Below the pieces are notes generated by a model. The model was not told the DNA's origin. It made no database searches and was given only the letters and a program-made list of their open reading frames with translations. A stretch of DNA of 15,010 nucleotides from an uncultured Pirellulaceae bacterium. GTDB taxonomy: Bacteria; Planctomycetota; Planctomycetia; Pirellulales; Pirellulaceae. The stretch covers positions 1 to 15,010 of the forward strand of contig CAYYHV010000161.1 in NCBI GenBank assembly GCA_964471695.1. The letters run 5' to 3'. The position numbers were made by a program, and so were the translations under genes. Positions 1 through 15,010 of this stretch are shown piece after piece (the first letter of the stretch is position 1; each line of letters opens with the position of its first letter).

Positions 1-1861
1 GACACCAATCTACGTTCAATCTGATAAGCGACTGAACGACGAGCAATATCGACTGGTAGTGGCTCGATCCGGTATCACAATATCGGCCGCGACCCTAAGA
101 GGCTTGGCCAGATCGACGGCTACGCTCATTCAGGTGATTGGTAATCACGCATCGGGAAGCATTCCGTGTTGTGAAATCAACGATTCTCCTCAATGTTCCT
201 ACCGCAGCTTTATGATGGATATCGGGCGAAATGCGCATAGCATCGAATGCCTCCATGAGACCATTGATTTGCTTTGGTATTACAAAGTCGATTCGTTACA
301 CCTCCACCTTACCGATGATCAACGATTCGCTTTTCCCTCTAAAGCGTTTCCCAAGTTGACTACGCAGCGGGGCAGTATAGCGTGGGATGAGTTTGCCGAT
401 CTTGAGGCTCAAGCCCGCTTGCTTGGCGTTTACATTATTCCCGAACTGGACGTCCCAGGACATTCAACGATCTTGCGCCGTGAATACCCAGACATCTTTG
501 GAAAATCTCCCTCCGATCTCGCGCAATCGGCCAAGTCGATAAAAGGATTGAAAACGCTTCTCACGGAGATGATCGAGCTATTCCCGAGTTCTCCCTACAT
601 CCATATTGGCGGCGACGAAGCTTACGGAGTCCCCGACGATACGCAACGATCGTTGATCAACGATCTCAACGCCTTTCTCAAAACGAAAAACAAAACGACG
701 CTCGTTTGGGAAGGCCCCCCTCAAGGAAAAGGGGCAAGCCGCGTGGATCCTGAGGTGATTCATATCAATTGGCGGACGATCAACTATCCAGCCGACAAGA
801 TGGTCGATGCCGGGCATCCAGTCGTCAACGCAGCCTGGGACCCGCTGTATATTGTCGATCACTATCCTCGCAACAACTTCACGATGGCATCGCCTGAGCG
901 AATCTATTCTCGTATGAAGCTGGAACGATTCGCCCACTTCAACCCCGACATCCCGACTTTCTCTCGTCCCGTCATGGTTCCGCCAACCAAGCGACTGATC
1001 GGGTTCTGCATGCCTTGGTGGGAAGGTCGCGAGGAGAATTTTTTCTCCATGATCGAACCGCGTATCGCGGCCTTTGCGGAAGTGGCTTGGGATCCAGGTC
1101 GAGAGCGCAATTATGACGCCTTCGCCCAGCGCGTTGCCACTACCGAAGCCTTCCGCCAACGGTTGTTCCACCCCGTTCGCATCACGGCTGAACCAGTCCG
1201 ACTGGAGCGCGAAGGCGTCTTTGATGATCGTACCAACATCCGTTTTCAATCAGACACAGCCGGAACAATTCGTTACACAGTCGACGGTAGTTTGCCGACA
1301 GTTGCCGCGAACGTAAGCAGTGGCGAACTGACCCTTGACAAGTCGACTCAGCTGCGAGCCGCACTGTTTCAAGACGGCAAGAAAATCGGCTTCGATACCC
1401 GCCGAAAGTTCACCAAGGTGACTCCGGAAGAAAACCTGGCGCTCGGCAAGCCGGTCAAAACGAATGTCAGCTCAGGCCCAGTGTTCTCCGTGGATCGTTT
1501 GACCGACGGCGGCACAGGCAACCTCGACTACTTTGTCGGCTATCCAGCCAAACCCAACCCGATCGAATTGACAATCGACCTTGAGGCAACCTATCCCGTG
1601 AACCGCGTTGTCGTCCACGCATTTCACAACGGGCGTGCATGGGAATCCTATAGGGTCCAAGTCTCACGGGATGGCAGCCGCTTTGAAACCGTTGCGGATC
1701 GCTCAAAGAAGCCGACCGAGTTTCTCCCCAAGGTCGTCCATGATTTTGACTCGAGAGACGCACGCTATGTCCGTATCTTGACCAAGGGATGTCAAGATAA
1801 CGTCTTCTCCGCATTCTCCCGCATCACGGAAATCCAAGTCTTCCAGGCCCCGTTGGAATAG
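1..1861 (+). CDS. Glycoside hydrolase family 20 (beta-N-acetylhexosaminidase-like) protein, 5'-truncated by the window edge. Catalytic (beta/alpha)8 domain followed by a hexosaminidase C-terminal-like beta domain and a C-terminal F5/8 type C (discoidin-like) domain
   Basis: The frame is open from nt 2 to the stop at 1859-1861. The ORF-track start at 59 is a GTG with no in-frame stop upstream, so the true start lies outside the window. GH20 hallmarks read directly in the translation: 'YRSFMMDIGRN' (R-x-x-M-x-D-x-x-R), 'HLHLTDDQ' (nt ~299-322), 'ELDVPGH', and 'IHIGGDEAYG' (the H-x-G-G-D-E catalytic Asp-Glu pair, nt ~602-628). The last ~150 aa ('DGGTGNLDYFVGYPAKPNPIELTIDLEATYPVNRVVVHAFHNGRAWESYRVQVSRDGSRFETVADRS') follow the pattern of an F5/8 type C / discoidin domain. 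Confidence 0.8.
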   Translation, partial: TPIYVQSDKRLNDEQYRLVVARSGITISAATLRGLARSTATLIQVIGNHASGSIPCCEINDSPQCSYRSFMMDIGRNAHSIECLHETIDLLWYYKVDSLHLHLTDDQRFAFPSKAFPKLTTQRGSIAWDEFADLEAQARLLGVYIIPELDVPGHSTILRREYPDIFGKSPSDLAQSAKSIKGLKTLLTEMIELFPSSPYIHIGGDEAYGVPDDTQRSLINDLNAFLKTKNKTTLVWEGPPQGKGASRVDPEVIHINWRTINYPADKMVDAGHPVVNAAWDPLYIVDHYPRNNFTMASPERIYSRMKLERFAHFNPDIPTFSRPVMVPPTKRLIGFCMPWWEGREENFFSMIEPRIAAFAEVAWDPGRERNYDAFAQRVATTEAFRQRLFHPVRITAEPVRLEREGVFDDRTNIRFQSDTAGTIRYTVDGSLPTVAANVSSGELTLDKSTQLRAALFQDGKKIGFDTRRKFTKVTPEENLALGKPVKTNVSSGPVFSVDRLTDGGTGNLDYFVGYPAKPNPIELTIDLEATYPVNRVVVHAFHNGRAWESYRVQVSRDGSRFETVADRSKKPTEFLPKVVHDFDSRDARYVRILTKGCQDNVFSAFSRITEIQVFQAPLE

Positions 1862-1934
1862 GCAACGCCACCCGACCGGCTAACGCGTCCGAGAGCGCCT
1901 TATGCTCAATGGACAGACCATGAACTTAACTTAC

Positions 1935-2543
1935 TTAGATGGACACCGTTTCATTGATCATTTGGATTGTGCGATCTCCATCCTCGTCGACTTTGAGCAC
2001 CGATCTCGAACAATTGTCCAATAGCGGCTCCTTCCACATCTGTGAAAGTTCCATACCGAGGTAATGAGCCAAGATGGCTTTGAGTATTCCACCGTGACTG
2101 ACGACTAGTACCTCGCCTGAACTCTCGTTACTGATAATCTGCTCAATCGACTGGACGCCACGATCCTGCAACTCGCAGAATCGTTCAGCCCCTTCCACAT
2201 AGAAGCGGTCTGGGCGCGACATAAAGTTCTCAAACTGAGTCGGATCGGATTCGCGAAACTCCGACCATAGCCGTTGTTGCCACGGCCCCATATAGATTTC
2301 TCTCAGGTCATCAATTTCAGCTACAGGCAGTGCAAGATTTGCGTTGAGAATTTCCGTCGTTTGTCGAGCCCGCAGATTGGAACTCGAGTAGACCGACGTG
2401 ATTCCAAGTCCCTCGATGGTTGGTCGCAGCGATTGTGCTTGAAGACGCCCCGTATCATTCAGAATGGAATCAAATTGCCCTTGGACTCTGGATTCTCTAT
2501 TGAAGTTGGTTTCGCCATGGCGAACCAAATGAAGTTGCAACAT
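1935..2543 (-). CDS. Histidine phosphatase superfamily (branch 1, phosphoglycerate-mutase-like) protein. Could be alpha-ribazole-phosphatase/PhoE-like; the subfamily cannot be resolved by eye
   Basis: 202-aa ORF. The N-terminal '[12 protein letters not shown]' carries the R-H-G phosphohistidine motif at residues 8-10. A second conserved His lies in 'VLVVSHGGILKAIL'. Size and motif spacing are typical of the PGAM-like family. It is convergent with the GH20 gene. Confidence 0.85.
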   Translation of the reverse strand: MLQLHLVRHGETNFNRESRVQGQFDSILNDTGRLQAQSLRPTIEGLGITSVYSSSNLRARQTTEILNANLALPVAEIDDLREIYMGPWQQRLWSEFRESDPTQFENFMSRPDRFYVEGAERFCELQDRGVQSIEQIISNESSGEVLVVSHGGILKAILAHYLGMELSQMWKEPLLDNCSRSVLKVDEDGDRTIQMINETVSI

Positions 2544-2736
2544 CGCTGAAAAGTGCCTTGCCTGAGTATTTGACGACTTGACCGAAAGTGATCAAGCCAG
2601 TTCCGCAGGATATCAAATACTCAAACTCTTCGCGATCTGGGGGCACGTAACTCTCGAGGAGATACGTAGCCAAACCTTGAGCTAGTCCCCAATCCAAGAG
2701 CATCGACCGGCTCATTGATCCCCAGTCGGACCTCAT
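2497..2736 (-). CDS. Hypothetical small protein (79 aa), possibly translationally coupled to the upstream DUF1559 gene
   Basis: Its ATG (2736-2734 on the minus strand) overlaps the TGA stop of the DUF1559 gene (2735-2733) in an ATGA arrangement. No recognisable motif. Its last ~15 codons overlap the start of the histidine-phosphatase gene in another frame, which lowers confidence. Confidence 0.3.
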
Positions 2737-3836
2737 TCGGAAATGTGCGGTTCAATCTGGAATCCAGAAACGCCGCCACGCTTGCCGTTTGGCGTCATAT
2801 GCGATTTGTAGACAACACGATCTATACCATTGGCCAGCGTTTTGACAGAACCGTCGACCATTGCAACAGTCACTCCACCAGGGTGACTGGAGGAAAGAAA
2901 CGGTTGCACTTCCGCATCGTCGACGTTGGGCAAGCCGCTCGGTCCATTTCCTTGCGGCGGATCGGCGTAGTTTGTCGCATTCGTAGCTTCGGTATCAACG
3001 GGAAACACAAAGGCACAATTGATAATTGATGGATTCGTCCAATTGTGCTGCAGAGCGATACGGGTTCTGGCAAAACCCGTGCGATAGTTTTCGCCGAACA
3101 AGATCGTATGACTGGTTCCGTCATACATTTTGTCAATTGATAAACTGTAGTTCTTATCCCGGACCTGTACCCAAGAGACTCCCGTGCCACGTGTAATTCT
3201 CGAGTCCTGCCGGTCGAGTAATTCCCCATTCTGATTCCAATCGATTGGCACATTGTTGTGTGAGTGCATACTCTGAACCGGCGGTAGTGATCCAGAGCGA
3301 TCTGCTCGATCGTAATCTCGAATGATCTCCATACTCGCTACACCAGCATTGATGACGTACACCAAATCACCTGGTGCTCGATTTGGTTTGCCCGGACACA
3401 AACCTGCTTCGAGATCATTCTGACCAATCGGCTTGTTCATCAAATCGGACCATGGCACATTAAAATCCCATTGACTGTAGAGATTGTTCTCCTCCAAATA
3501 CGGAAGCAGTGTCACGACCCAACTGTGTCCGGGCGAACAAAACGTTTCGTGAGCCGATGGACCACCACCGCCCGGTGTGCCGGGCCCAACGGGTTGAAAT
3601 TTCCCATAGGCCGGAATCTTCTGACGAGCAGCATTCGCGTAGTTTGCAGATGCCAGATGAAGTTGATGAAGCTTGTTCTTGCATTGCACAACCCTGGCGG
3701 CTTCTCGAGCCGATTGAACGGCCGGCAGCAGGAGCGCAACAAGAATCCCAATAATGGCGATGACCACCAGCAATTCGACCAAAGTGAATGCTGTTCGATT
3801 AAATTCACGTGAGCGCAGCCGCAAAGATGTTGTCAT
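2733..3836 (-). CDS. DUF1559 / prepilin-type N-terminal cleavage-methylation domain protein (pseudopilin-like, H-x9-DG family typical of Planctomycetes)
   Basis: The N-terminus '[53 protein letters not shown]' is a classic type-II-secretion/type-IV-pilin-like leader plus hydrophobic helix, followed by the conserved DUF1559 core. The C-terminus contains '[17 protein letters not shown]', an exact H-x9-DG motif. Confidence 0.9.
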
Positions 3837-4318
3837 CAGAATTGCCCTTTAAAAAACAGTTTCTCCTTGAGCCGTCCGACAGACCGGAAGGCAACGACTT
3901 GGATATGCCCTATTCACCAGATGCCTGAATTCGCGAATAGAGCCCAATGACTTAAACTCAACCCGCCCCGTCAAACTAGGTAAGCGACTCTCGACTCTGA
4001 CGTTCTCGCGACATCGTTTGTCTCGCACCCGACAACTTATTCGCCTCGACGCCAGGCCCCCAAAAAAGACTCAAAACACCGGGGAAAACTGAGCGCAAAC
4101 GACTTCATGACAAACATGGCGTGATTTTGTCGCTTGAATTTGTGAGGGACGAAGTGATCTTCTCAGCCGCAGCCGATGGAAATCGAACCACAACATGTGG
4201 GCGGCAAAGAAGAAAAGATTTGGCGCGCCCCGACGTCGTCAATTACGCCTTACAAGTGTCGTACTTCATTTGGTTTTGGACACGGGTTTTAACTCGACTC
4301 CAACGAACTGAGGATCGT
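3837..4318. promoter_or_regulatory. Divergent intergenic region expected to hold promoters for the DUF1559 gene (-) and the NfeD-like/flotillin operon (+). No confident -35/-10 assignment
   Basis: A ~480-nt non-coding gap between divergently oriented genes. A GAGGA (4310-4314) lies 4 nt upstream of the ATG at 4319. Promoter hexamers cannot be called reliably by eye in this taxon. Confidence 0.3.
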
Positions 4319-5044
4319 ATGGAATTCATTCGATTGTGTTTCGCACCGGCGACGGCACCATTCACCCTACTGTTGGGACTGGTGGTACTCTACTGGTGCA
4401 TGTGTATCCTCGGCGCTGTCGGAATGGACACGCTGGATTTTGATCTCGATGTCGACGGCGACGTTGACCTCGATCTTGATTTTGATGTCGACGCGGATGT
4501 CGATCTCGATGTGGACGCAGGCTTGGATGTGGATGCAGACGCCGATGTAGAAGTCGACGGCTTACCCACCTGGGTTTGGGTTCTAAAGTTTTTCAACCTT
4601 GGCGAAGTTCCGCTGACGATTCTGCTCAGCATGTTGATCTTCTGCCTGTGGGCAATGAGCCTGACGTTGAACGCAAAATGGAATGTTTCGCAGGAATTGG
4701 GCATGTCTTTGCTTCTGCTGATTCCCAATGTGCTCACCAGCTTGTTGACCACGAAGATTCTGACGGCTCCCTTCCGTCCCATCTTCAAGCGTGCAAAAGA
4801 AGGGATCGCGGCTCCACTACGAATCGTGGGTAAGCGAGTGTTTGTGACGACAGGCGAAGTCACCGACTCGTTCGGTCAGGCAGAACTCTGCCAGGCTGAA
4901 GAGTCGTCGGATGGCCCAATCACTTTGAATATTCGCAGCCGTGATGGCTTGCGTTTAACCAAAGGCGACGAGGCGCTGGTTGTCGATCACGATGCAGATT
5001 CGGATACGTTTTTCGTTGTTCCCTTTGATTTGGGAGTGAATTAA
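4319..5044 (+). CDS. YqiJ/NfeD-like (short NfeD homologue) integral membrane protein with a C-terminal OB-fold-like domain. Partner of the downstream flotillin
   Basis: Start chosen at ATG 4319, preceded by GAGGA. The ORF-track start at 4121 would add a 66-aa non-hydrophobic extension with no support. Predicted hydrophobic helices: 'FTLLLGLVVLYWCMCILGAV', 'WVWVLKFFNLGEVPLTILLSMLIFCLWAMSL' and 'MSLLLLIPNVLTSLLTTKILTAPF'. The C-terminus 'RIVGKRVFVTTGEVTDSFGQAELCQAEESSDGPITLNIRSRDGLRLTKGDEALVVDHDADSDTFFVVP' matches the beta-barrel pattern of NfeD/YuaF/YqiJ C-terminal domains. Stop TAA (5042-5044) directly abuts the ATG (5045) of the flotillin gene. Confidence 0.7.
   Translation: MEFIRLCFAPATAPFTLLLGLVVLYWCMCILGAVGMDTLDFDLDVDGDVDLDLDFDVDADVDLDVDAGLDVDADADVEVDGLPTWVWVLKFFNLGEVPLTILLSMLIFCLWAMSLTLNAKWNVSQELGMSLLLLIPNVLTSLLTTKILTAPFRPIFKRAKEGIAAPLRIVGKRVFVTTGEVTDSFGQAELCQAEESSDGPITLNIRSRDGLRLTKGDEALVVDHDADSDTFFVVPFDLGVN
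4427..4561 (+). repeat. Cryptic hexanucleotide-period coding repeat (GAT/GAC-NNN)n. It encodes an alternating Asp-hydrophobic tract 'DTLDFDLDVDGDVDLDLDFDVDADVDLDVDAGLDVDADADVEVDG' inside the NfeD-like gene
   Basis: Direct reading: repeated 'gatgtcgac' / 'gatctcgat' units, with several GTCGAC sites. Asp occupies every second position for ~45 residues. The antisense strand gives the S/T-rich shadow ORF 4390..4863. Confidence 0.85.
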
Positions 5045-7264
5045 ATGCTTGCTACGTTACCCCTTGGATTGGCCTCGGAAATTTTCACCATCGCGATATC
5101 CTTCGTGATTCTCGTCTTGGTGGGTGCCACGGCCATGTTTATCAAACTTTATCAGAAGGTGGATCAGGGCACTGCTCTGGTCAAAAACGGGTTTGGTGGA
5201 GCCACGGTCAGTTTCACGGGCATGATGGTAATTCCCATTTTGCACCGTTCGGAACGTATGGACATCTCCGTCAAGCGGATCGAAATCTATCGCCACGGCG
5301 ATACGGGTTTGATCTGTATGGACAACATTCGTGCCGACATCAAAGTCGTGTTCTTTGTGCGAGTCAACAAGACTGCCCAGGACGTGATGCGAGTCGCCCA
5401 GTTGCTGGGTTGTAAGCGAGCTTCGGATGAAGCGGAACTGGTCAAACTGTTTGACGCCAAGTTCTCTGAAGCCTTGAAAACGGTTGGTAAACAATTTGAG
5501 TTTGTCGACCTTTACAACTCGCGAGATCGCTTTAAGGACGAAATCCTGAAGACCATCGGCACGGACCTCAATGGTTATGTGCTCGATGACGCTGCGATTG
5601 ACTATCTGGAACAGACGCCGATCGACATGCTGAATAAGGACAACATCCTTGATGCGGAAGGTATTAAAAAGATCACGGACTTGACGGCTCAACAGCAGGT
5701 CCTGGCCAATAACATTCGACGTGATCGCGAAATGACGATCACGAAGCAGGATGTTGAAGCCAAGGAAGCCATCCTGCAGCTGGAACGTCAACAAGCCGAG
5801 GCTGAAGAGAAGCAGAAGCGAGAGATCGCCGAAGTGACTTCGCGGCAAACGGCCGAAGCCGAGATCGTAAAACAGCAAGAGCGATTGCGATCCGAACAGG
5901 CTCGTATCGCGGCTGAGGAAGAAATCCAGGTCGCCGAAGAGAATAAGCTACGACAAGTCATCGTGGCTCAAAAGGCAAAAGAACGTACGACGGCAGTCGA
6001 AACCGAACGCGTCGAGCGGGACCGAGCCCTTGAGGCGACCGAACGAGAACGACTTGTTACGCTGGCGGAAATCGACAAAGAAAAGTCGGTCGAAGTCGAG
6101 CGCAAGGCGATCCAGGATGTGATTCGGGAACGAGTCGCCGTGGAACGCACCGTCGTCGACGAAGAGGAAAAGATCAAAGATACCCGCGAATTCGCGACTG
6201 CAGAACGAGCCAAACAGGTTGCTGTTACGGCTGCCGAGATGCAGGCCGAACAGGAACTGGTAAAAGAGATCAAGGCTGCCGAAGCGGCCAAGCAAGCCGC
6301 GGAACACGAAGCCGAGCAGGTCCTTATTACGGCCGAGGCTCGACGAGCTGCTGCCGAGAAGGATACCGAAGCCAAGAAGCTACACGCCGAAGGCATCACC
6401 GCTACCACAGCGGCTCCGGGATTGGCACAAGCCGAAGTGATTGCCGCAACTGCTTCCGCCAAGGAAAAGCAAGGTGTGGTCGAAGCCATTATCCTGCAAC
6501 GCAAGGCAGAAGCCGAAGCGCAAGGATTGGCTGCGAAAGCCGAAGCGATCGAGAAGGAAGGTACTGCTGAAGCCAAGGTCCTCGAACTCAAGTTCAAGGC
6601 CGATGCGGATGGTATCCGAGAGAAAGCCGAAGCGATGAAGCAACTCGATATGGTCGGCCGCGACCACGAGGAATTCAAATTGCAGCTTGAGAAAGAGCAA
6701 GCCGTCGAACTGAAGGAGATCGAGGCTCAAATGGAAATCGCGACTCGCCAAGCCGAAGTTATGAGCGCTGCTCTCAAATCGGCAAGAATCGACATCGTCG
6801 GCGGCGACAGCAATTTCTTCGACAAGATCGTCGGCTCGATTGCCAACGGCAAATCCGTCGATCGGCTGCTGGAGAATAGCAACGCCTTGAATGACGTGAA
6901 GCAAGCCTTCCTCGGAAATGGCTCGGCGAACGGCACCAATGGCAATAGTGGTACCAACGGCCAAGCGAGTCCCAACGGCATTGGCAGCATTGCCGAAACC
7001 CTGGGCCTCACGGGCTCAGGCGGCTTGACCGACAAACTGCGAGACATCGCAGCTCGGTTAGGCATCGGTGCGGAAGATATCAAGACGATGTCCGTAGCGG
7101 CTTTGATCAGCCAGATGATGGCTCGATCGGATGACCGCGGCGAACAGTCCGAACTGAAAAAGCTGCTCAAAGCAGCCAAGCAGATCGGCGTTGAAAAAGA
7201 ATCGGCTGCATCCGTTGTAGAAAAACTCGGTGAATCCGACAGCGAACCAGTTGCGACCAGTTAA
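5045..7264 (+). CDS. Flotillin-family SPFH/band-7 protein (YqiK/FloT-like) with an unusually long central coiled-coil
   Basis: N-terminal hydrophobic helix 'IFTIAISFVILVLVGATAMFI', then an SPFH core ('GTALVKNGFGGATVSFTGMMVIPILHRSERMDISVKRIEI', 'NIRADIKVVFFVRV'). Next comes a ~250-aa E/A/K/Q/R-rich heptad region ('EAKEAILQLERQQAEAEEKQKREIAEVTSRQTAEAEIVKQQERLR...'), characteristic of flotillin EA-repeats. The tail is G/N/S-rich. Tight TAA-ATG junction with the upstream NfeD-like gene, the canonical nfeD-flotillin operon arrangement. Confidence 0.9.
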   Translation: MLATLPLGLASEIFTIAISFVILVLVGATAMFIKLYQKVDQGTALVKNGFGGATVSFTGMMVIPILHRSERMDISVKRIEIYRHGDTGLICMDNIRADIKVVFFVRVNKTAQDVMRVAQLLGCKRASDEAELVKLFDAKFSEALKTVGKQFEFVDLYNSRDRFKDEILKTIGTDLNGYVLDDAAIDYLEQTPIDMLNKDNILDAEGIKKITDLTAQQQVLANNIRRDREMTITKQDVEAKEAILQLERQQAEAEEKQKREIAEVTSRQTAEAEIVKQQERLRSEQARIAAEEEIQVAEENKLRQVIVAQKAKERTTAVETERVERDRALEATERERLVTLAEIDKEKSVEVERKAIQDVIRERVAVERTVVDEEEKIKDTREFATAERAKQVAVTAAEMQAEQELVKEIKAAEAAKQAAEHEAEQVLITAEARRAAAEKDTEAKKLHAEGITATTAAPGLAQAEVIAATASAKEKQGVVEAIILQRKAEAEAQGLAAKAEAIEKEGTAEAKVLELKFKADADGIREKAEAMKQLDMVGRDHEEFKLQLEKEQAVELKEIEAQMEIATRQAEVMSAALKSARIDIVGGDSNFFDKIVGSIANGKSVDRLLENSNALNDVKQAFLGNGSANGTNGNSGTNGQASPNGIGSIAETLGLTGSGGLTDKLRDIAARLGIGAEDIKTMSVAALISQMMARSDDRGEQSELKKLLKAAKQIGVEKESAASVVEKLGESDSEPVATS

Positions 7265-7288
7265 GGTCACAACAGGTGTTTTAAAAAT

Positions 7289-7335
7289 GGCGAGGGCGGT
7301 GCAGGATGCGTGGAACCCCAGACACGCACCTCGCC
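7289..7335 (+). other. Imperfect GC-rich hairpin ~25 nt after the flotillin stop (no U-tract)
   Basis: Outer stem ggcgagg (7289-7295) / cctcgcc (7329-7335). Nested stem gcgtg (7308-7312) / cacgc (7323-7327). Read from sequence. Confidence 0.4.
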
Positions 7336-7342
7336 GCCCAAA

Positions 7343-7376
7343 CCGCCGGTGACTACTGGAAGCGGCGGCTACCGCC
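7343..7376 (+). other. Hairpin ccgccg (7343-7348) / cggcgg (7363-7368) with a 14-nt loop 'gtgactactggaag', plus an alternative pairing partner ccgcc (7372-7376)
   Basis: Read from sequence: the middle segment can pair with either flanking segment, giving two mutually exclusive conformations. Confidence 0.4.
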
Positions 7377-7523
7377 TAATCGCACACGCATTAACCCCGA
7401 AGGGGTGGCAGCCCAGTTGCTGTCGCCTCAACGAGGCTGGAGTTAAGATAACCAACGCAATCACACGGCTGACGCCGTGGGCTATGTGCTGTCGCCACTC
7501 CGTGGCTGTTACGAATTAGAGTA

Positions 7524-7590
7524 GTGAGCGGCGAGGCGTTAGCCGCCGGTGGACACTGCAGATACCGGCGGCTGGGTCCTTACCGCTCAC
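7524..7590 (+). other. 67-nt two-tier GC-rich hairpin (candidate RNA structural or protein-binding element), ~77 nt upstream of the giant ORF start
   Basis: Outer stem gtgagcgg (7524-7531) / ccgctcac (7583-7590), 8 bp. Symmetric 10x10 internal loop. Inner stem gccgccgg (7542-7549) / ccggcggc (7565-7572), 8 bp. 15-nt loop 'tggacactgcagata'. The inner hairpin is a near-copy of the hairpin at 7343-7368: 'ccgccggtgactactgga...cggcggct' versus 'ccgccggtggacactgca...ccggcggct'. Confidence 0.55.
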
Positions 7591-7666
7591 GACGGCCATA
7601 TAGTTTTCGATCTAATGCACAGAACCTGGAACACGGTTCGCCTAACACAAGGAAAGCGAAAAAAAG

Positions 7667-10600
7667 ATGTCCAATAGCAATGCGGACAACACTCATCTTC
7701 CAATGAATGACGAAGTCCAGTCGAAACAAGCTGAACCCAATCGACTGGAAAGCTCCACCTACGACATCATTCGCAATCGCTTGAACAATCAGTCGGATGA
7801 TCTGCGCACGCGACTTGAAGGACTCAATACCAGCCGACGAGATGTGTTCGGTGCCATTGAAACGAAGCTTTTGGCATCTGACCGCATTACGACCGAAAAC
7901 AACTGTGTTCCTCGAGATATGGTCGCGATCGGCGATCGGTTTATCTTTGGTTACAACGTCAACTTTGGATTGAAGACCGAAGTCCAATTACCCGATGTCT
8001 TTGCGATCCACTCGTTTCGTGATAACACGTTTCACGCCGAGTCACTGGAACTCATCGACGATGCGCAATTCCGAGAGGATTTTGCCCAGGTGTTTCGCTA
8101 CTACAAGCGAATTCGCTTTGGCCAGTTTTTCGTCAACGGTCCCAACTTGTACATGGTGTTTCCCTTTGGAACCACTGCGGCTGATATCAAGGTCTTCAAG
8201 TGGGTCATCGAAGGTGACCGACTGCGTTACATCGACGCGCGTAGCGAGCATGAAGTCCGCTATCCGACTCAGCACGAATTCCGCTGGGTGCGTACCCATC
8301 TTGATCAACATCGTGAAGGCATCCATCCGCACGTATCGATTGAGGACCGTATCTTCGTAGAAACGGTCGGCGGCGACCTCACGATCAAGGTAGAAGACAA
8401 CACCGAATCAGGGCAGGGCATTTATGCCGAGGATGTAGTTGATCCGGATCAAAACCTGGCCGACGCTGATATTTTCTATTCGGTGATTGAGAATATCATC
8501 CTGCTGAAGATCCGTCCCTACGGAGAGGAAGCCTACCGCTACATCGTCTATAACGACAAAATCCGACAGGCTCGTCGAGTCGATTCGATTGAGAACGCAT
8601 GTGTCCTGTTACCGGAAGGTCACGGCCTGATTTTCTCCAACGGATACTATCTACAAACGGGTGAGTACAAGGAATTTGACAGCGGGACGACGGACTTGCA
8701 GTTCTATCGCCGAGTCGTCTCGACCAACGGCGAAGACTTTCTGTTTGTTTTCAATAACCCGGATACCGGTACGTATGTACTGCTTTCTTACAACGTCATC
8801 ACACAGCAAGTCGCGACTCCCATCAGTTGCCATGGGTACTCGTTGTTTGATAACGGCAACCTCGTATTCTTCAAATCGGGGCACGAGGCGCAGAAGCACC
8901 ATACCTTGCAGATCTGGCAAACGCCGTTTGTCGGTGAGCAGTTTACGCAACACGTCAACACGGACTCGTTCCTTTACAAGATCGGCAACCCGGACATCGT
9001 GCGCGGCATGGCCGAATGTTACGAAATCCTGGCGTTAATCGCGAAAGACGATTCCTACTCGGGACTTTATCACGACCTCGCCAAAAAATCGGGCGACGTC
9101 CTTGATACCTACTTTTGGACGACTTCTGATGAAGCCGGCAACCTGGCCCTTTCGCTGGAAGAGATTCGCTCCACCGCGAATGCCGCCATTGGTGAATTCG
9201 AAAAAGTCCAGCGGGCTCGGCGCGAAACCGAAACGCAGTTTAATGAGGCTTCGTCCGATGCCAATCGGGTTGTGTCCGCGGTTCGCAGTCGCAGGTATGA
9301 CCATATCGACGACTTTGTCGCCGCACTGGCTGATCTTCGAAAAGTGCGTGGCGCTGTTGTTGGATTGCGCCAACTACGATTCATTGACGAACAAGCAGTT
9401 GCCGAGCTCGAACAGTCGATCGCGGAACAGACGGAACGCGTCTCGTTTCACTGCGTCGAGTTTCTGCTGCGCGAAGATTCACTCGTCCCTTATCGCAAGC
9501 GTGTTGAAGCACAGAGGGCTGCGATTGACGAAGTAACAAAAGTCGCGGAAGCCAAAACGCTGGAGGAAGAAATCGACTCGACGGCTGGCGATCTCGATAT
9601 GCTGATTGATGTGATCAGCAACTTGAAGATCGACGACGCCACGCAACGCACGTCGATCATCGAGTCGATATCCGCGATCTACTCACGATTGAACCAGTCT
9701 CGCGCCGCCTTGAAAAAGCACTCCAGCCAGTTGATGGCTGTGGAGGGTGAAGCCGAATTCCACTCGCAAACTAAGCTGCTCGAACAGACGGTTGTGAACT
9801 ATCTTGACGTTTGTGACTCGCCGGAAAAATGCGACGAGTATCTGACCAAGATGATGGTCCAGATCGAAGAGCTTGAAGGTCGATTCGCAGAGTTCGATCA
9901 TTTCCTGACGGAGCTCGTGGATCGCCGACAACAAGTCTACTCGGCGTTTGACAGTCGCAAAGTTGCATTAGTCGAACAGCGCAACCGGCGTGCGACTTCG
10001 ATGATGAGTGTGGCTGAACGTATCCTCAAGGGGATTGAAACGCGAGTCGCCCAACTCGACGAAATCAATGACATCCACAGCTATTTTGCTGCTGATTTGA
10101 TGGTGGACAAGGTCCGCAACCTGATCGACCAGCTTACGGAGCTCGGCGATTCCGTCAAAGTGGATGACCTGCAGAGTCGCCTGAAGACTGTCCGTGAAGA
10201 CGCGATCCGGCAATTGAAGGATCGCAAGGAACTGTTCGTCGATGGCGAAAATATTATCCAACTGGGGCGACACCGTTTTTCGGTGAACACGCAACCGTTA
10301 GATTTGACCACCGTCGTTAAAGACAACCAGATGTTCTACCACCTGACGGGCACCAACTTCATGGAGCCCATCATGGACGCTGAGCTTCTGGAGACCGTCG
10401 AAGTCTGGAATCAGACGACAGTGGCCGAGAACACTGACGTTTACCGAGCCGAGTACCTCGCGTACCAGATGCTGCGAGATCGCAGTTGGTTGGCAGACGC
10501 AAGTTCGGACGCATCAGGCCAATCGGAAACTTACGATTTGACCGCCGAATCGCTGCTGCCGCGCGTCCAGGCGTATATGGCTTCGCGCCACACGGAAGGA

Positions 10601-13021
10601 TACATGAAAGGTGTTCACGATCACGATGCAGCGATACTGCTTGCCGCCTTGTTGGAAATGGAATCGACTCTTGGCGCATTAAAATACCCAACCCAATCCC
10701 GAGCCCTCGCAAACGTTGTCTGGAAACATACACGTACGACGGATGCTGCGCTGGCACAAAAACTCACTGCGGAAATGATGGCTCGCGGAGCAATTCAGAG
10801 AGCATTTGGAACCGATACGCTTCCGATGCAATCCAAAGACACCAACGATCGGCTGTACGCGCAAGTCCGCGGACTAGTCCAGGAATACTGTGAATCCGCA
10901 ACGCACTTTGATCCCATCCACATTAACGACGCGACGACTTTCCTCATCGAAGAAGTCGCGGCGGGACGATCGCCGTTTGCAATCAGCGAAGACGCCCAAA
11001 CACTGAACGAGGGCTTTTTGCAACAACTCAAACGAGACAAGTCGTCAGATGCGTTCATCGAGTCGCGTACGGCTCTAGTTGGTTCGAGCTCTGCTAACAC
11101 CTTTGACGAATTCATACTCGTTCGGACGTGGTTGAATGCATACGTTGATCGACGTGGAGAATCCGCCGATGCACTCGTACTGGACGAAGCTGCGGCTGCA
11201 CTGACCGTCATCGCAGGCAATGCCACGCCGACGGTCCTGTCTGGTTCGTCACATCGCGAACTCACAGGGATGCTGGGCGATCACGCTTGCGTAAAGAACG
11301 ATGTGTATACATTGGTGTACGATCAATTCGCAAATCGCCTGCAGCGATTTGAACGCACGGTCGTTCCACAATTCACAACATACCAAGCCCGCAAGAAGCA
11401 ACTGGTCGAGTCGCGCAAGGAATCGCTGCGACTGGACGAGTTTAAACCTCGCGTGCTCACCTCATTCGTACGCAACCGCTTGATCGACGAAGTTTACCTG
11501 CCCATGGTTGGTGACAACCTGGCCAAACAAGTCGGCGTCGTCGGCGACCAGAAGCGTACGGACTTGATGGGCCTACTGCTGCTCGTTTCTCCTCCTGGTT
11601 ACGGAAAGACGACATTGATGGAGTACGTCGCCAACCGATTGGGACTGACTTTTATGAAAATCAACGGACCGGCCATCGGTCACGCTGTGACTTCGCTCGA
11701 CCCAGCCGAAGCCGGTAATGCGAGTGCTCGCGAGGAGATTGAGAAGCTGAACCTGGCGCTTGAAATGGGCGACAACGTGATGATTTATGTCGACGATATC
11801 CAACACTGCAACCCTGAGTTCTTGCAGAAATTTATCTCGCTCTGTGACGCACAGCGCAAGATCGAAGGTGTATTCCATGGCAAGACTCGACGCTACGATC
11901 TTCGTGGTAGAAAAGTCGTTGTGGTCATGGCGGGCAACCCGTATACCGAAAGCGGACAGAAGTTCCAGATTCCAGACATGCTGGCTTCGCGAGCCGACAC
12001 GTACAACCTTGGCGACGTCACGGGCGGCCACCAGTCCGCTTTTGCACTGAGCTACCTGGAAAATGCGATTACGTCGAACCCGACGCTTAGCACGCTTGCC
12101 AGCCGCAGCCAATCGGACGTTCTCTCGGTGATCGAGATGGCAAAGAACGGTTCCGCCGAAGGTATTGAGCTGGAAGGAAATTATTCGCCAGAACAGTTAA
12201 CGGAGTTTACTTCGGTCATCGACAAACTGCTGAAGGTGCGCGACGTGGTGCTCCGGGTAAACGAGCAATATATCGACTCGGCAGCACAAGCCGACGAGTA
12301 TCGTACCGAACCTGCGTTCAAGCTCCAGGGCTCGTACCGCGACATGAACAAGATGGCGGAAGCCGTCGCGGCCATTATGAATGAGGATGAATTATCGTTA
12401 CTCATCCAATCGCATTACGAAAACCAGGCTCAGACGCTGACGGCCGATGCCGAAGCCAACTTGCTGAAGCTTCATGAAATCCAAGGCACGTTGTCTGATG
12501 AACAACGAGAACGCTGGGAGTCCATATGCTCAACATTCAGCCGCAACTTACTGTTAGGCGCTGCGGGGGACGACAAGTTTGCCAAAATCGTTGGCCGGCT
12601 TAGCGATTTCACGAAGGGATTGGATGAAATCCGTACCGTTATCGCTTCCGGCATGTCGCAAATGGCAGAAGCCCAGGCGGCGGACACAACAAGCGACCAG
12701 TTTGCCGAAGCAACGGCTCACCTGGCGAGGTTCACCGAAGGCCTGGAAGGCATTCAACGGTCGCTCACCGACGGTATTTCTCACATGGAAGCCGCCGCCG
12801 AGACACCTGCACCGCCTCAGGAGATGCGAGTCTTCTATCGTGTACCACGTCCGTTCCTCGAAATCATTAAGGCTCAGTTTGCAATCATGAAAGGCTGGTT
12901 GGAACCGATCACGGAGCTTACCCAGCAATCACAGATCAACACGGCCGAACTGCGCAAATCGCTCGACAGCGCGACGGAACAGTTCTCCAAGATGGTTTCT
13001 GAACTGGAGCTGCAAGAATAG
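7667..13021 (+). CDS. Giant (1,784 aa) multidomain protein. Beta-rich N-terminal region, long alpha-helical/coiled-coil middle, and a single C-proximal AAA_5-type (MoxR/McrB/midasin/dynein-related) ATPase module. Family not recognised
   Basis: Uninterrupted 5,355-nt ORF with coding-like composition. Every antisense ORF is short. N-terminal ~60-490 aa are rich in aromatic/beta-type residues ('FIFGYNVNFGLKTEVQLPDVFAIHSF', 'YMVFPFGTTAADIKVFKWVIEGDRLRYI', 'FLFVFNNPDTGTYVLLSYNVIT'). Residues ~500-1000 are helical, rich in E/R/L/Q. The P-loop ATPase lies at residues ~1300-1480 (see the domain feature below). The C-terminal ~300 aa are helical. Confidence 0.9.
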   Translation: MSNSNADNTHLPMNDEVQSKQAEPNRLESSTYDIIRNRLNNQSDDLRTRLEGLNTSRRDVFGAIETKLLASDRITTENNCVPRDMVAIGDRFIFGYNVNFGLKTEVQLPDVFAIHSFRDNTFHAESLELIDDAQFREDFAQVFRYYKRIRFGQFFVNGPNLYMVFPFGTTAADIKVFKWVIEGDRLRYIDARSEHEVRYPTQHEFRWVRTHLDQHREGIHPHVSIEDRIFVETVGGDLTIKVEDNTESGQGIYAEDVVDPDQNLADADIFYSVIENIILLKIRPYGEEAYRYIVYNDKIRQARRVDSIENACVLLPEGHGLIFSNGYYLQTGEYKEFDSGTTDLQFYRRVVSTNGEDFLFVFNNPDTGTYVLLSYNVITQQVATPISCHGYSLFDNGNLVFFKSGHEAQKHHTLQIWQTPFVGEQFTQHVNTDSFLYKIGNPDIVRGMAECYEILALIAKDDSYSGLYHDLAKKSGDVLDTYFWTTSDEAGNLALSLEEIRSTANAAIGEFEKVQRARRETETQFNEASSDANRVVSAVRSRRYDHIDDFVAALADLRKVRGAVVGLRQLRFIDEQAVAELEQSIAEQTERVSFHCVEFLLREDSLVPYRKRVEAQRAAIDEVTKVAEAKTLEEEIDSTAGDLDMLIDVISNLKIDDATQRTSIIESISAIYSRLNQSRAALKKHSSQLMAVEGEAEFHSQTKLLEQTVVNYLDVCDSPEKCDEYLTKMMVQIEELEGRFAEFDHFLTELVDRRQQVYSAFDSRKVALVEQRNRRATSMMSVAERILKGIETRVAQLDEINDIHSYFAADLMVDKVRNLIDQLTELGDSVKVDDLQSRLKTVREDAIRQLKDRKELFVDGENIIQLGRHRFSVNTQPLDLTTVVKDNQMFYHLTGTNFMEPIMDAELLETVEVWNQTTVAENTDVYRAEYLAYQMLRDRSWLADASSDASGQSETYDLTAESLLPRVQAYMASRHTEGYMKGVHDHDAAILLAALLEMESTLGALKYPTQSRALANVVWKHTRTTDAALAQKLTAEMMARGAIQRAFGTDTLPMQSKDTNDRLYAQVRGLVQEYCESATHFDPIHINDATTFLIEEVAAGRSPFAISEDAQTLNEGFLQQLKRDKSSDAFIESRTALVGSSSANTFDEFILVRTWLNAYVDRRGESADALVLDEAAAALTVIAGNATPTVLSGSSHRELTGMLGDHACVKNDVYTLVYDQFANRLQRFERTVVPQFTTYQARKKQLVESRKESLRLDEFKPRVLTSFVRNRLIDEVYLPMVGDNLAKQVGVVGDQKRTDLMGLLLLVSPPGYGKTTLMEYVANRLGLTFMKINGPAIGHAVTSLDPAEAGNASAREEIEKLNLALEMGDNVMIYVDDIQHCNPEFLQKFISLCDAQRKIEGVFHGKTRRYDLRGRKVVVVMAGNPYTESGQKFQIPDMLASRADTYNLGDVTGGHQSAFALSYLENAITSNPTLSTLASRSQSDVLSVIEMAKNGSAEGIELEGNYSPEQLTEFTSVIDKLLKVRDVVLRVNEQYIDSAAQADEYRTEPAFKLQGSYRDMNKMAEAVAAIMNEDELSLLIQSHYENQAQTLTADAEANLLKLHEIQGTLSDEQRERWESICSTFSRNLLLGAAGDDKFAKIVGRLSDFTKGLDEIRTVIASGMSQMAEAQAADTTSDQFAEATAHLARFTEGLEGIQRSLTDGISHMEAAAETPAPPQEMRVFYRVPRPFLEIIKAQFAIMKGWLEPITELTQQSQINTAELRKSLDSATEQFSKMVSELELQE
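11540..12110 (+). other. AAA_5-type ATPase module inside the giant ORF (Walker A, atypical Asp-Asp Walker B, NP sensor-1 motif)
   Basis: Walker A 'LLLLVSPPGYGKTTLMEY' (SPPGYGKTT = nt 11588-11614). Walker B 'NVMIYVDDIQHCNPEFLQKFISL' (VMIYVDD = nt 11777-11797). Sensor-1 region 'KVVVVMAGNPYTESGQKFQIPDMLASRADTYNL' (~nt 11915-12010). This aligns by eye to the MoxR/midasin consensus 'hhhDEINRAPPxxQSALLE ... hhhhATQNPxExEGTYPLPEAQLDRF'. Confidence 0.7.
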
Positions 13022-13048
13022 CGCGTACCATCACCGGCGGGCGCAGCG

Positions 13049-13090
13049 AAAAAAAACGCCGTCGCAACTCGAAATTGCGACGGCGAAAAT
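13049..13090. terminator. Bidirectional rho-independent terminator between the convergent giant ATPase gene (+) and the Calx-beta/dockerin gene (-)
   Basis: Perfect 11-bp stem cgccgtcgcaa (13057-13067) / ttgcgacggcg (13075-13085) with a 7-nt loop 'ctcgaaa'. It is flanked by A8 (13049-13056), which reads as U8 after the hairpin for the minus-strand transcript, and by 'aaaatt' on the other side. Located 28 nt after the + gene stop and 31 nt after the - gene stop. Confidence 0.75.
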
Positions 13091-13115
13091 TCTGAATGCT
13101 ACGTGGTCAACTCAC

Positions 13116-15010
13116 TTAAGCATTGACATCATAATCTGCGAATACCGCAGCCCGAACGTCATAGCGCTTGACTTCAGGCCGAGATACGGACGCAACGTTC
13201 GACATCACAATCACGGGCTGGTCGGAAACCGATGAGACTGCTGAATCCGCACTTTGGAATTTATTGGCATTCCAACTGTTGAAATCGAGAACATCGACGA
13301 CACCGTCCGCATTGAAATCAGCACTACACCAACCTGTGCCGGTCGTAAACTTATTGGCATTCCAAACGTTAAAGTCCTGAACGTCTACGGCTCCGTCGAG
13401 GTTCGCATCGCCGTGTAGATACGGATTGCCCGAAGCAAGATTTGCCGCCCCGGCCTCGGCCAACCACAATTCGAGATCCTCATTCGTTAGTGACCCGTCA
13501 CCACTAAGGTCAAATTGCATGCCGCCTGCTGTTTGGCCAGCGATGGCTTGTACAAGCGCGTCGACATCGCTACAGGCGTAGAAGCCGTCGCCATCAAAGT
13601 CGCCGGAGTTTGACGACTCGTCGTCATTGATGATCGTCGCCGTTTCCATAATGCCGGCGTCCGCGAGCACCAAGTCGAATGTTTCATCAGCCTCAAACTG
13701 CGAGTCCCCGCTGACTTGGACCGTTATCGACTTTTGAACTTCACCCGCCGAGAAGCTGAGCGAACCGCTTGGCAAAACGCCACCGACGAAATCGGCGGCA
13801 TTAGCAGGCGATGCTCCGCTGCCGGTGATTTCCCAATCAATCGTCGATGGAAAAGCCGTGACGCCCTGACGAGAAACCGTAAACGTAAAGTCCGTAGTGC
13901 CAGAATCGCCTTCGATTTGATCAACATCGGCACCACCAGGAATCGCGACCTGGCGAGTCGACCAACTGGTAATGCTCAAAGGATACTGGGCAAGCTGATC
14001 CCAACTGCTACCGTCGAACGAGTACTCAAGCACGACTTCTTCGCCGTCTTCAGGATTCTCGCCTCCGTTAACATCACTTCCATAAATGATATCGAAGGAA
14101 AGCATATCGCCGACATCTGGCGAAATGAAACGCGAAGTCGCGAATCGTGAATTGCCGCCCGTGAAGTACAAGGCGTTTCCGTCCGAACCGTTGAAATCAT
14201 TCTCCGCGGTGCCGCCAGAAATCTCTACCCACTCGCCGGAATCAATGTCTGGATCAAAGTCATCACCGAATTCACCGCTGGCTAGCTCGACGTTGTCGAT
14301 CCCCCAGTTGTCAAAGTCGCCATCCGAGTTGTCAAGTTGACGCCACCGCACTTGAGGGCCAGCATTGATCACGTATCCGACGTCATCATTCAGAATTGTA
14401 CCCGTCGCTCGCGTTGAAGTACCAAGCGTTACCAAACCGTCGCTGCTGGCACTCGTCAGCAAGACACCAAACGTCTCGTCTGATTCTCCCATAGCATCAG
14501 GACTGACTTGTACCGTTACCGTCGCTGTGGACTCGCCACCCCCGAAGGTTATCTGGCCCGATGGAAGTGTGTTTCCGATAAAGTCACTCGCGTCAGCCGA
14601 CTCCGCAACGACTTCCCAATTCACAGTACTGGGCAATGCCAGTCCGCCTTGCCGAACAATTTCAAAACTGACTTCGCTGAGGGGGTTTGTGTCGATGCCC
14701 GCGGGCAGTGCTACGTCGATCGATGTCCAGACTTTATTGGTTTGCGAGTCGACGGTTTCGACAAGCTGCCAATTGGAACCACCATCAAGCGAGTACTCGA
14801 TGACGACGTCTTCACCTTCATCAACGTTCTCCCCGCCATTGGTGCTATCACCGAAGATGATATCGAACGACAAAATATCGCCAGGTTGAGCATTTTGGAA
14901 ATTGGAGACTGCCGTACGATCAGGAGCTCCGCTGAAGAATAGAGAACGACCACCCGCACCACCAAACTGCGTGTTCACCGTGCCATTGGTGATCTCAGAC
15001 CAGACGGCGT
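13116..15010 (-). CDS. Secreted/cell-surface-type repeat protein, 5'-truncated by the window end. Two tandem copies of a ~260-aa module, each ending in a Calx-beta-like domain, followed by C-terminal dockerin-type (DxDxDG) repeats
   Basis: The frame stays open upstream of the ORF-track GTG at 14978 ('...AVWSEITNGTVNTQFGG' reads through to the window end). The sequence before the GTG repeats the internal module start 'EWVEISGGTAENDFNGSDG', so the gene begins outside the window. Internal duplication: 'FDIIFGDSTNGGENVDEGEDVVIEYSLDGGSNWQLV' versus 'FDIIYGSDVNGGENPEDGEEVVLEYSFDGSSWDQLA'. Calx-beta-like segments: 'FIGNTLPSGQITFGGGESTATVTVQVSPDAMGESDETFGVLL' and 'FVGGVLPSGSLSFSAGEVQKSITVQVSGDSQFEADETFDLVL'. 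Dockerin-like repeats: 'DFDGDGFYACSDVDALVQAIAG', 'DLSGDGSLTNEDLELWLAEAG', 'DANLDGAVDVQDFNVWNANKF', 'DFNADGVVDVLDFNSWNANKF'. Confidence 0.8.
   Translation of the reverse strand, partial: AVWSEITNGTVNTQFGGAGGRSLFFSGAPDRTAVSNFQNAQPGDILSFDIIFGDSTNGGENVDEGEDVVIEYSLDGGSNWQLVETVDSQTNKVWTSIDVALPAGIDTNPLSEVSFEIVRQGGLALPSTVNWEVVAESADASDFIGNTLPSGQITFGGGESTATVTVQVSPDAMGESDETFGVLLTSASSDGLVTLGTSTRATGTILNDDVGYVINAGPQVRWRQLDNSDGDFDNWGIDNVELASGEFGDDFDPDIDSGEWVEISGGTAENDFNGSDGNALYFTGGNSRFATSRFISPDVGDMLSFDIIYGSDVNGGENPEDGEEVVLEYSFDGSSWDQLAQYPLSITSWSTRQVAIPGGADVDQIEGDSGTTDFTFTVSRQGVTAFPSTIDWEITGSGASPANAADFVGGVLPSGSLSFSAGEVQKSITVQVSGDSQFEADETFDLVLADAGIMETATIINDDESSNSGDFDGDGFYACSDVDALVQAIAGQTAGGMQFDLSGDGSLTNEDLELWLAEAGAANLASGNPYLHGDANLDGAVDVQDFNVWNANKFTTGTGWCSADFNADGVVDVLDFNSWNANKFQSADSAVSSVSDQPVIVMSNVASVSRPEVKRYDVRAAVFADYDVNA

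Follow-up and report, generated by a model that had tools for sequence, protein, structure and literature searches.

A 15,010-nt stretch of contig CAYYHV010000161.1 (positions 1-15,010) of a Pirellulaceae bacterium, referred to here in its full length as the window, was found to carry on its forward strand (positions 4319-13021) a run of three genes, which encode a YqiJ-like membrane protein, a flotillin and a giant ATPase of the AAA+ type, and comparison of this run with related loci indicates that the giant protein is very probably linked in function to the flotillin encoded ahead of it. The linkage is strongly supported because the two genes lie on the same strand, with the flotillin upstream, in 68 of the 70 loci inspected, distributed over ten phyla, while the genes outside the module vary from locus to locus, because the flotillins concerned belong to a conserved subfamily, and because the yqiJK pair of Escherichia coli lacks such an ATPase. 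The module in the window is another instance of an operon type that has already been published and is experimentally uncharacterised.

The comparison was made on 80 loci from species-representative genomes of Planctomycetota, Verrucomicrobiota, Kiritimatiellota, Omnitrophota, Bacteroidota, Desulfobacterota and Clostridia, to which two Planctomycete genomes and six plasmid or chromid records (Bacteroidota, Gammaproteobacteria, Actinomycetota and Deinococcota) were added. Open reading frames (ORFs) of the loci were searched iteratively with the window proteins, the unannotated Proteus and Vibrio records being covered by our own ORF calls and jackhmmer, and the synteny counts were restricted to the 70 loci having at least 2.5 kb of sequence upstream of the giant gene. 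In 66 of them, no more than 1.6 kb separates the giant gene from the flotillin gene on its upstream side; in two more the distance is 1.7-2.4 kb, and a YqiJ-like gene stands ahead of the flotillin in at least 59 of these 68 loci. The triad is also present in the records of Hymenobacter, Pseudomonas fluorescens plasmid pQBR103, Streptomyces, Deinococcus, Proteus and Vibrio. Outside the window, the flotillin and the giant gene are separated by anything between -11 nt and about 2.4 kb (median 132 nt), the negative value coming from two Clostridia loci (L072 and L076) whose two ORFs share 11 nt when each is called from its first possible start codon. The original prediction had asked whether SPFH/NfeD genes are enriched near homologues of the giant gene, and these counts answer in the affirmative.

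In regard to earlier work, the operon has been described, computationally only, by Ravi et al. (mSystems 2024, PMC11237479; bioRxiv 2020), abbreviated forms included, and the module can therefore no longer be regarded as a novel candidate, as it had first been put. The operons described there combine a CesT/Tir-PspA dyad with three further genes, one of them encoding a protein with three transmembrane (TM) segments prototyped by YqiJ and YuaF, and abbreviated operons without the dyad are reported to be widely distributed (PMC11237479). The prototype, the neighbourhood of Dokdonia donghaensis ANH61663.1, shows exactly the order seen here, together with an upstream, opposite-strand regulator composed of a helix-turn-helix (HTH) and a protease (supplement of PMC11237479), and ATP-dependent, chaperone-like membrane dynamics were proposed as the role of the operon (PMC11237479). 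The window shares with the published operon the same three proteins, their order and their strand, but it is without the CesT/Tir-PspA dyad and the LexA-like regulator, and its structured spacer of 402 nt is absent from the description in that paper. As no homologue of PspA or CesT/Tir was found in the window, it represents the abbreviated form; a LexA-like regulator was not found in it either.

Among the related loci, PspA is encoded in 22, a CesT/Tir-like protein in 17 and a LexA-like regulator in 16, the latter on the opposite strand where listed, and in the Bacteroidota loci the published operon recurs in its full form, with the gene of the LexA-like (HTH plus S24 protease) regulator. In Bacteroidota (L003, 1580-3690), the CesT/Tir-like, PspA and LexA-like regulator genes stand ahead of the triad. 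On plasmid pQBR103 of P. fluorescens (L004, 1-4110), the genes ahead of the triad encode PspA, a rhomboid protease, DUF2491, DUF350, DUF1190 and a glutathionylspermidine synthase homologue, a run which, the rhomboid apart, we take to resemble the yjfJ-yjfC operon of E. coli. In the searched literature, DUF3686, PF12458 and DUF7902 are mentioned in no paper, no paper was found that connects the name 'DNA repair ATPase' with flotillin, and the ATPase is mentioned neither in a Pseudomonas aeruginosa SPFH paper nor in a 2009 paper on SPFH evolution.

Concerning the first gene of the module, the translated protein of 241 amino acids (aa) contains three hydrophobic segments, of which the first and second are joined by an acidic (D-x)n loop, and its C-terminal part is a beta domain. 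The motif GAGGA lies 4 nt before its ATG at 4319, and the start position is the same in the homologues. Full-length scans against Pfam and NCBIfam gave no match, and YqiJ_N was hit weakly by the window protein alone (E=0.28); when the 18 syntenic homologues were taken together with it, Pfam returned YqiJ_N for 4/19 and the C-terminal OB-fold domain of the NfeD type (PF01957) for 2/19 of the sequences, with a best NfeD E-value of 0.0049. A profile built from these 19 proteins matched E. coli YqiJ with a probability of 95.9% and E=6e-9 (hhalign), while the structure of YuaF (PDB 2k14) was matched weakly over the expected region (E=0.46). The Hymenobacter orthologue belongs to the DUF1449 family by its NCBI name. 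The acidic loop between TM1 and TM2 (window 4430-4570, aa 38-85) is made of alternating Asp-X residues, DFDLDVDGDVDLDLDFDVDADVDLDVDAGLDVDADADVEVD, and loops of the same kind, very variable in length, are found in YqiJ-like homologues from many phyla. Judged from its sequence, this loop could bind cations.

The YqiJ-like gene runs directly into that of the flotillin, since at the junction, which reads ...AAT TAA ATG CTT..., the stop codon of the former and the start codon of the latter abut. The flotillin consists of an N-terminal hydrophobic anchor, the SPFH domain, a long Glu/Ala-rich helical region and a variable C-terminal tail of low complexity. The anchor, as read from the translation, is a hydrophobic stretch at about aa 14-34, FTIAISFVILVLVGATAMFI. 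The full-length protein gave no match in Pfam and NCBIfam scans, which we attribute to the composition filters of HMMER; the N-terminus scanned alone (aa 1-252) matched Band_7 (PF01145) with E=1.5e-8. E. coli YqiK is 30% identical to it over 444 aa (BLASTP, E=2e-45), an alignment that extends past the SPFH domain through the Glu/Ala-rich coiled coil. The C-terminal Flot domain (PF15975) was not matched by Pfam on three overlapping segments of the protein or on three homologues, and a conserved IDIVGG..FFD block at aa 581-595 aligns with the C-terminal region of YqiK. The flotillins adjoining the giant gene form a tightly conserved subfamily of 640-740 aa, in which column identity is 0.6-0.8 across phyla and the segments at about aa 480-520 and 540-575 have no counterpart in E. 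coli YqiK. The window protein, with its 739 aa, is longer than YqiK (553 aa) and belongs to this separate subfamily.

In E. coli (yqiJ-yqiK) and B. subtilis (yuaF-floT), a small NfeD-like gene with three TM segments is likewise placed immediately upstream of the flotillin, and the recognition of such a pair in the window, as well as the coordinates, the strand and the TAA-ATG junction first given for it, agree with the ORF map and with the matches presented above. In E. coli, however, no giant ATPase lies downstream, and yqiK is followed by sibD/ibsD.

The giant protein of 1,784 aa belongs to the DUF3686/DUF7902 family, which is marked by DUF3686, DUF7902 and a C-terminal AAA module united in a single chain of 1,600-1,900 aa. 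Its ATG at 7667 is preceded at 8 nt by AAGGAAAG, and Pfam places DUF3686 on aa 45-483 (E=6.8e-183), DUF7902 on aa 604-686 (E=1.6e-28), and both AAA (E=1.4e-7) and AAA_5 (E=6.3e-7) on aa 1304-1434. The set of DUF3686, DUF7902 and AAA is on record for each of the 120 listed homologues. The clusters of homologues number more than 5,600, homologues are present in at least 568 species-representative genomes, and identity across phyla amounts to 46-55% over about 1,650 aa. The best homologues come from Pirellulaceae, Mariniblastus and unclassified Planctomycetota.

AlphaFold2 (AF2) models, calculated for aa 1-600 (mean confidence, pLDDT, 86.3) and aa 585-1784 (pLDDT 79.5), give the following order from the N- to the C-terminus: a disordered N-terminus with one long helix, about seven four-stranded beta units, very long helices, a small beta domain, a helical domain, the AAA+ module and a helical C-terminal tail. 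From the model, the N-terminal domain appears propeller-like, and Foldseek hits of this domain and the helical arms include the clathrin terminal domain, IFT-A and ROD. The AAA+ module contains Walker A GYGKT (K1314), Walker B DD (D1376, D1377), sensor-1 N1424 and R1442, among which Walker A, sensor 1 and R1442 are invariant in the aligned giant proteins. The Walker B Asp-Asp (window 11792-11797), in place of the usual Asp-Glu, is present in 23/23 Planctomycete and 10/10 cross-phylum aligned sequences. The fold is closest to CbbQ, NorQ, dynein and midasin, with a lead over the Clp/HslU clade of only about 2 Z units. A beta-hairpin precedes sensor 1 in the model (aa 1399-1410), whose DSSP string shows no evident helix-2 insert. 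By its Walker B DD, the giant protein differs from the MoxR-class, dynein and midasin proteins, which have DE. Furthermore, MoxR-class AAA+ proteins such as CbbQ, NorQ and RavA are about 300 aa long and work with a VWA partner, whereas no VWA gene was found by Pfam among the larger ORFs of the window. No TM segment, protease, nuclease or DNA-binding domain was detected in the giant protein (translation, Pfam). The original prediction had read from the letters a beta-rich N-terminal region, a long coiled coil, an AAA module of the MoxR/midasin class and a missing VWA partner, all of which are confirmed by the models and scans; its statement that the protein could not be assigned to any characterised family was mistaken, though the family is itself uncharacterised.

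Taken together, it seems fairly probable that the three genes constitute one functional module of the cytoplasmic membrane, serving membrane maintenance or stress by a mechanism that we infer. The specific mechanism proposed here, that of a scaffold served by an ATPase, is drawn from analogy and is more tentative, its chances being somewhat below even. According to this model, the YqiJ-like protein and the flotillin would build an oligomeric, membrane-anchored scaffold, by analogy with the solved SPFH-NfeD and HflK/C-FtsH assemblies. The giant protein, cytosolic, would oligomerise via its MoxR/dynein-like AAA+ ring, and its propeller-like domain and long helical arms would engage the scaffold or the clients of the scaffold. 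ATP would then be spent to assemble, remodel or disassemble the flotillin assemblies and, where PspA is co-encoded, the giant protein may also act on PspA/ESCRT-III-like assemblies, with membrane maintenance or an envelope-stress function as the outcome.

Precedents for parts of this model are available. HflK/C-FtsH represents a pairing of an SPFH scaffold with an AAA+ machine, and QmcA-YbbJ a co-complex of SPFH and NfeD proteins which, like HflK/C, is solved, as cited in PMC13086221. FtsH, however, is a membrane-anchored AAA protease of the classical clade, while the giant protein has neither a protease domain nor a TM segment. With Vps4/ESCRT-III, and with PspA as the bacterial homologue of ESCRT-III, the model shares the concept of an AAA+ ATPase that remodels a membrane-bound polymer; the analogy was drawn by Ravi et al. 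(PMC11237479), and the occurrence of PspA in the 22 related loci is relevant to it.

Several observations weigh against the model. The case for a partnership of the module proteins is drawn from their genes, and no experimental work on any member was found in the searched literature. In two of the 70 loci (L029 and L064), no SPFH gene was found within 8 kb upstream of the giant gene. The junction between flotillin and giant gene tolerates inserts of 0.5-2.4 kb (transposases, toxin-antitoxin-like pairs, lipoproteins), so that in many loci the giant gene may be transcribed from a promoter of its own. In addition, as Walker B is DD instead of DE, the sequence suggests that ATP turnover may be slow or switch-like, or may use a different catalytic base, and the TM-scores (template modelling scores) behind the propeller assignment are low.

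A narrower version of the scaffold-ATPase model would make the giant protein a dedicated, ATP-driven machine for the assembly or disassembly of flotillin cages. Its propeller-like domain and helical arms would dock on the co-occurring flotillin subfamily, and the machine would be comparable to Vps4 for ESCRT-III or to the uncoating machinery for clathrin. We regard this version as doubtful, and more so than the general mechanism. The likelihoods given here for the preferred reading and for its rivals overlap and are not to be added up.

The 402-nt spacer that separates the giant gene from the flotillin in the window offers the first of these rivals, namely that the genes are independent in this genome, with the spacer insulating the giant gene as a separate transcription unit, perhaps with a riboswitch-like leader. 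The spacer is three times as long as the 132-nt median and is strongly structured: its + strand folds at -175.2 kcal/mol (z=-5.55, 0/100 shuffles as good), the - strand reaching z=-2.69, and repeats and inverted repeats are present. It holds no credible small ORF, the candidates being arginine-rich and implausible. It also matches a curated RNA family, Acido-Lenti-1 (RF01687), by a small margin over the gathering score, with E=5e-7 for the region and 1.1e-5 for the whole window. Whole inserted genes at the junction in other lineages, where the giant gene may be expressed separately, are compatible with such insulation as well. On the other hand, a search of the + strand of the spacer gave neither a terminator-like nor a promoter-like site. 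The hairpin repeat TGCTGTCGCC-N7-GGCTG, which occurs twice in the spacer against 0.03 matches expected by chance and whose second copy (7487-7508) is the 3' hairpin of the Acido-Lenti-1 match, is missing from all 86 other giant-encoding loci, and the Acido-Lenti-1 model itself found nothing in seven other Planctomycete loci. A conserved riboswitch-like leader was rejected on account of this absence. Even if the giant gene were transcribed separately, the conserved linkage would stand, and the independence of the genes in this genome is considered unlikely.

Where the same motif does occur, it is dispersed. The metagenome scan returned five contigs with it, none of which encodes the module, and clustered Acido-Lenti-1 copies, whose stems show compensatory differences, are found in four unrelated metagenomic contigs. 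Three contigs hold 2-3 copies per 150-300 nt in alternating orientation (L088 2812-3014, L089 797-1103 and L090 8480-8698), an arrangement typical of repetitive extragenic palindromic (REP)-like repeats, and the related metagenomic copies score 37.6-44.1 bits. Rfam lists Acido-Lenti-1 as a small RNA (sRNA). Because the motif occurs as two to three alternating copies in unrelated contigs, it looks like a dispersed repeat of the type of REP or bacterial interspersed mosaic elements (REP/BIME) rather than a discrete sRNA gene or a gene-specific leader. The 402-nt spacer is thus a lineage-specific insertion of REP-like hairpins that lies outside the conserved module; of the 'structured leader' originally described, the structure is real, and its membership in the module does not hold. 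REP elements are known inside E. coli operons, and by analogy the hairpin cluster could stabilise the upstream flotillin message, which would favour an excess of the scaffold over the ATPase. At most, the spacer tunes the relative expression of the two.

The flotillin-giant junction was also seen to be a recurrent insertion site in other lineages, with the gene pair on either side staying intact. The inserts (L028 5662-6186, L048 6802-7251, L051 7386-7939, L026 6595-7893, L025 6666-7752 and L042 6630-7796) comprise, by reading of N-terminal sequences without a domain search, IS200/RAYT-like transposases, toxin-antitoxin-like pairs and small lipoproteins. A reverse transcriptase (RVT_1) gene directly follows the giant gene on its downstream side in one Planctomycete genome (L001 15583-17082); the window has none. 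For the Acido-Lenti-1 motif, a location close to group II introns has been reported in some cases.

Alternatively, the module could be a membrane-associated anti-phage or conflict system, in which the flotillin/YqiJ scaffold would sense perturbation of the membrane by phage and the giant ATPase would act as sensor or effector. Members carried on plasmids or megaplasmids (Hymenobacter, pQBR103, Streptomyces, Deinococcus), the patchy spread over ten phyla with flanking genes unrelated between loci, the toxin-antitoxin-like and transposase inserts at the junction and the LexA-like (HTH plus S24 protease) regulator genes in 16 loci are all features that such a system might show. However, PADLOC-DB v2 returned nothing for the YqiJ-like protein or the flotillin and for the giant protein only a weak P-loop match to IetA (E=4.5e-5), and the domain scans found none of the nuclease, protease, pore or NADase domains of effectors. 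The partners are homologous to housekeeping envelope-stress proteins (PspA, YqiK), and the giant protein keeps an identity of 46-55% over about 1,650 aa across phyla. By general expectation, such high conservation would be unusual for arms-race genes. Nothing relevant that links flotillin with anti-phage activity was found in the searched literature, and an anti-phage role appears improbable.

That the giant protein is a DNA-repair ATPase whose adjacency to flotillin is unrelated to membranes is very improbable, since this rests on database names (Pfam DUF3686 'ATPase involved in DNA repair', NCBI 'DNA repair ATPase') and on a weak RuvB_N match (E=2.9e-5) that covers no more than the Walker A region, while the protein has a single contiguous MoxR/dynein-type AAA+ module near the C-terminus instead of the split ABC/SMC head of SbcC and Rad50, no nuclease or DNA-binding domain was detected in it, no SbcD-like gene lies nearby, membrane-protein neighbours are conserved in 68/70 loci and no supporting paper was found in the searched literature. 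The name probably derives from coiled-coil similarity to SbcC-type proteins. As domain content, gene neighbourhood and literature give it no support, the name 'DNA repair ATPase' is doubtful, and on thousands of database entries it is probably a misnomer propagated in error.

Within the window, a divergent gene (2733-3836, - strand) borders the cluster upstream and a convergent gene (13116-14978, - strand) downstream; the coordinates of the module and its parts are collected in Table 1. The + strand of the upstream intergenic region gave no sigma-70-like site, so that a promoter there is presumed only. The flanking genes (59-1861, 1935-2543, 2733-3836 and 13116-14978) seem unrelated to the module. 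Their products are a GH20 hexosaminidase with F5/8 type C domains, a histidine phosphatase, a DUF1559/N-methylation-motif protein and a secreted protein with Calx-beta, Reelin-subrepeat and dockerin parts. The combination of DUF1559 with an N-methylation motif is typical of Planctomycetota.

Table 1. Features of the three-gene module and its borders in the 15,010-nt window
Feature	Position	Strand	Basis or remark
Upstream intergenic region, presumed promoter	3837..4318		ORF map, sequence; separates the divergent DUF1559 gene from the operon
YqiJ/YuaF-type (short NfeD-like) membrane protein, 241 aa	4319..5044	+	ORF map, translation, profile match to YqiJ
Flotillin (SPFH) protein, 739 aa	5045..7264	+	ORF map, Band_7 match, YqiK similarity
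Structured spacer, 402 nt, GC-rich hairpin cluster	7265..7666	+	Between flotillin and giant genes; window-specific
Hairpin repeat, first copy	7418..7439	+	2 matches vs 0.03 expected by chance
Rfam RF01687 Acido-Lenti-1 RNA motif match	7462..7507	+	38.0 bits vs gathering score 37
Giant AAA+ protein, 1,784 aa, DUF3686/DUF7902 family	7667..13021	+	ORF map, Pfam
Predicted propeller-like beta domain, about seven four-stranded blades	7865..8920 (aa 67-418)	+	Within DUF3686 (aa 45-483)
Long helical/coiled-coil region	8969..10246 (aa 435-860)	+	AF2 secondary structure; includes DUF7902 (nt 9476-9724)
Single AAA+ module	11534..12166 (about aa 1290-1500)	+	Motif positions in the text
Strong terminator hairpin with T8 after it	13057..13085	-	Ends the convergent gene 13116-14978 (-); marks the 3' boundary of the operon

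Bacterial flotillins have been widely studied, and their biochemical function is disputed. Conceptually, little is added here to the association of the ATPase with flotillin, because it was published in 2020 and 2024. Our study contributes a quantified synteny, the structural placement of the AAA+ module with MoxR, dynein and midasin, the identification of the co-occurring flotillin subfamily and the separation of a window-specific, REP-like spacer from the conserved module. The module provides a conserved and linked ATPase partner for flotillin in at least 568 species and ten phyla, and some of the hosts, such as Proteus mirabilis, Vibrio campbellii and P. fluorescens with pQBR103, should be amenable to genetics. 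It is worth experiment because it offers an enzymatic handle on the function of bacterial flotillins. If the giant protein did prove to be a machine dedicated to flotillin cages, bacterial flotillin microdomains would have an energy-dependent turnover cycle, and the module would give the first enzymatic handle on the role of bacterial flotillins.

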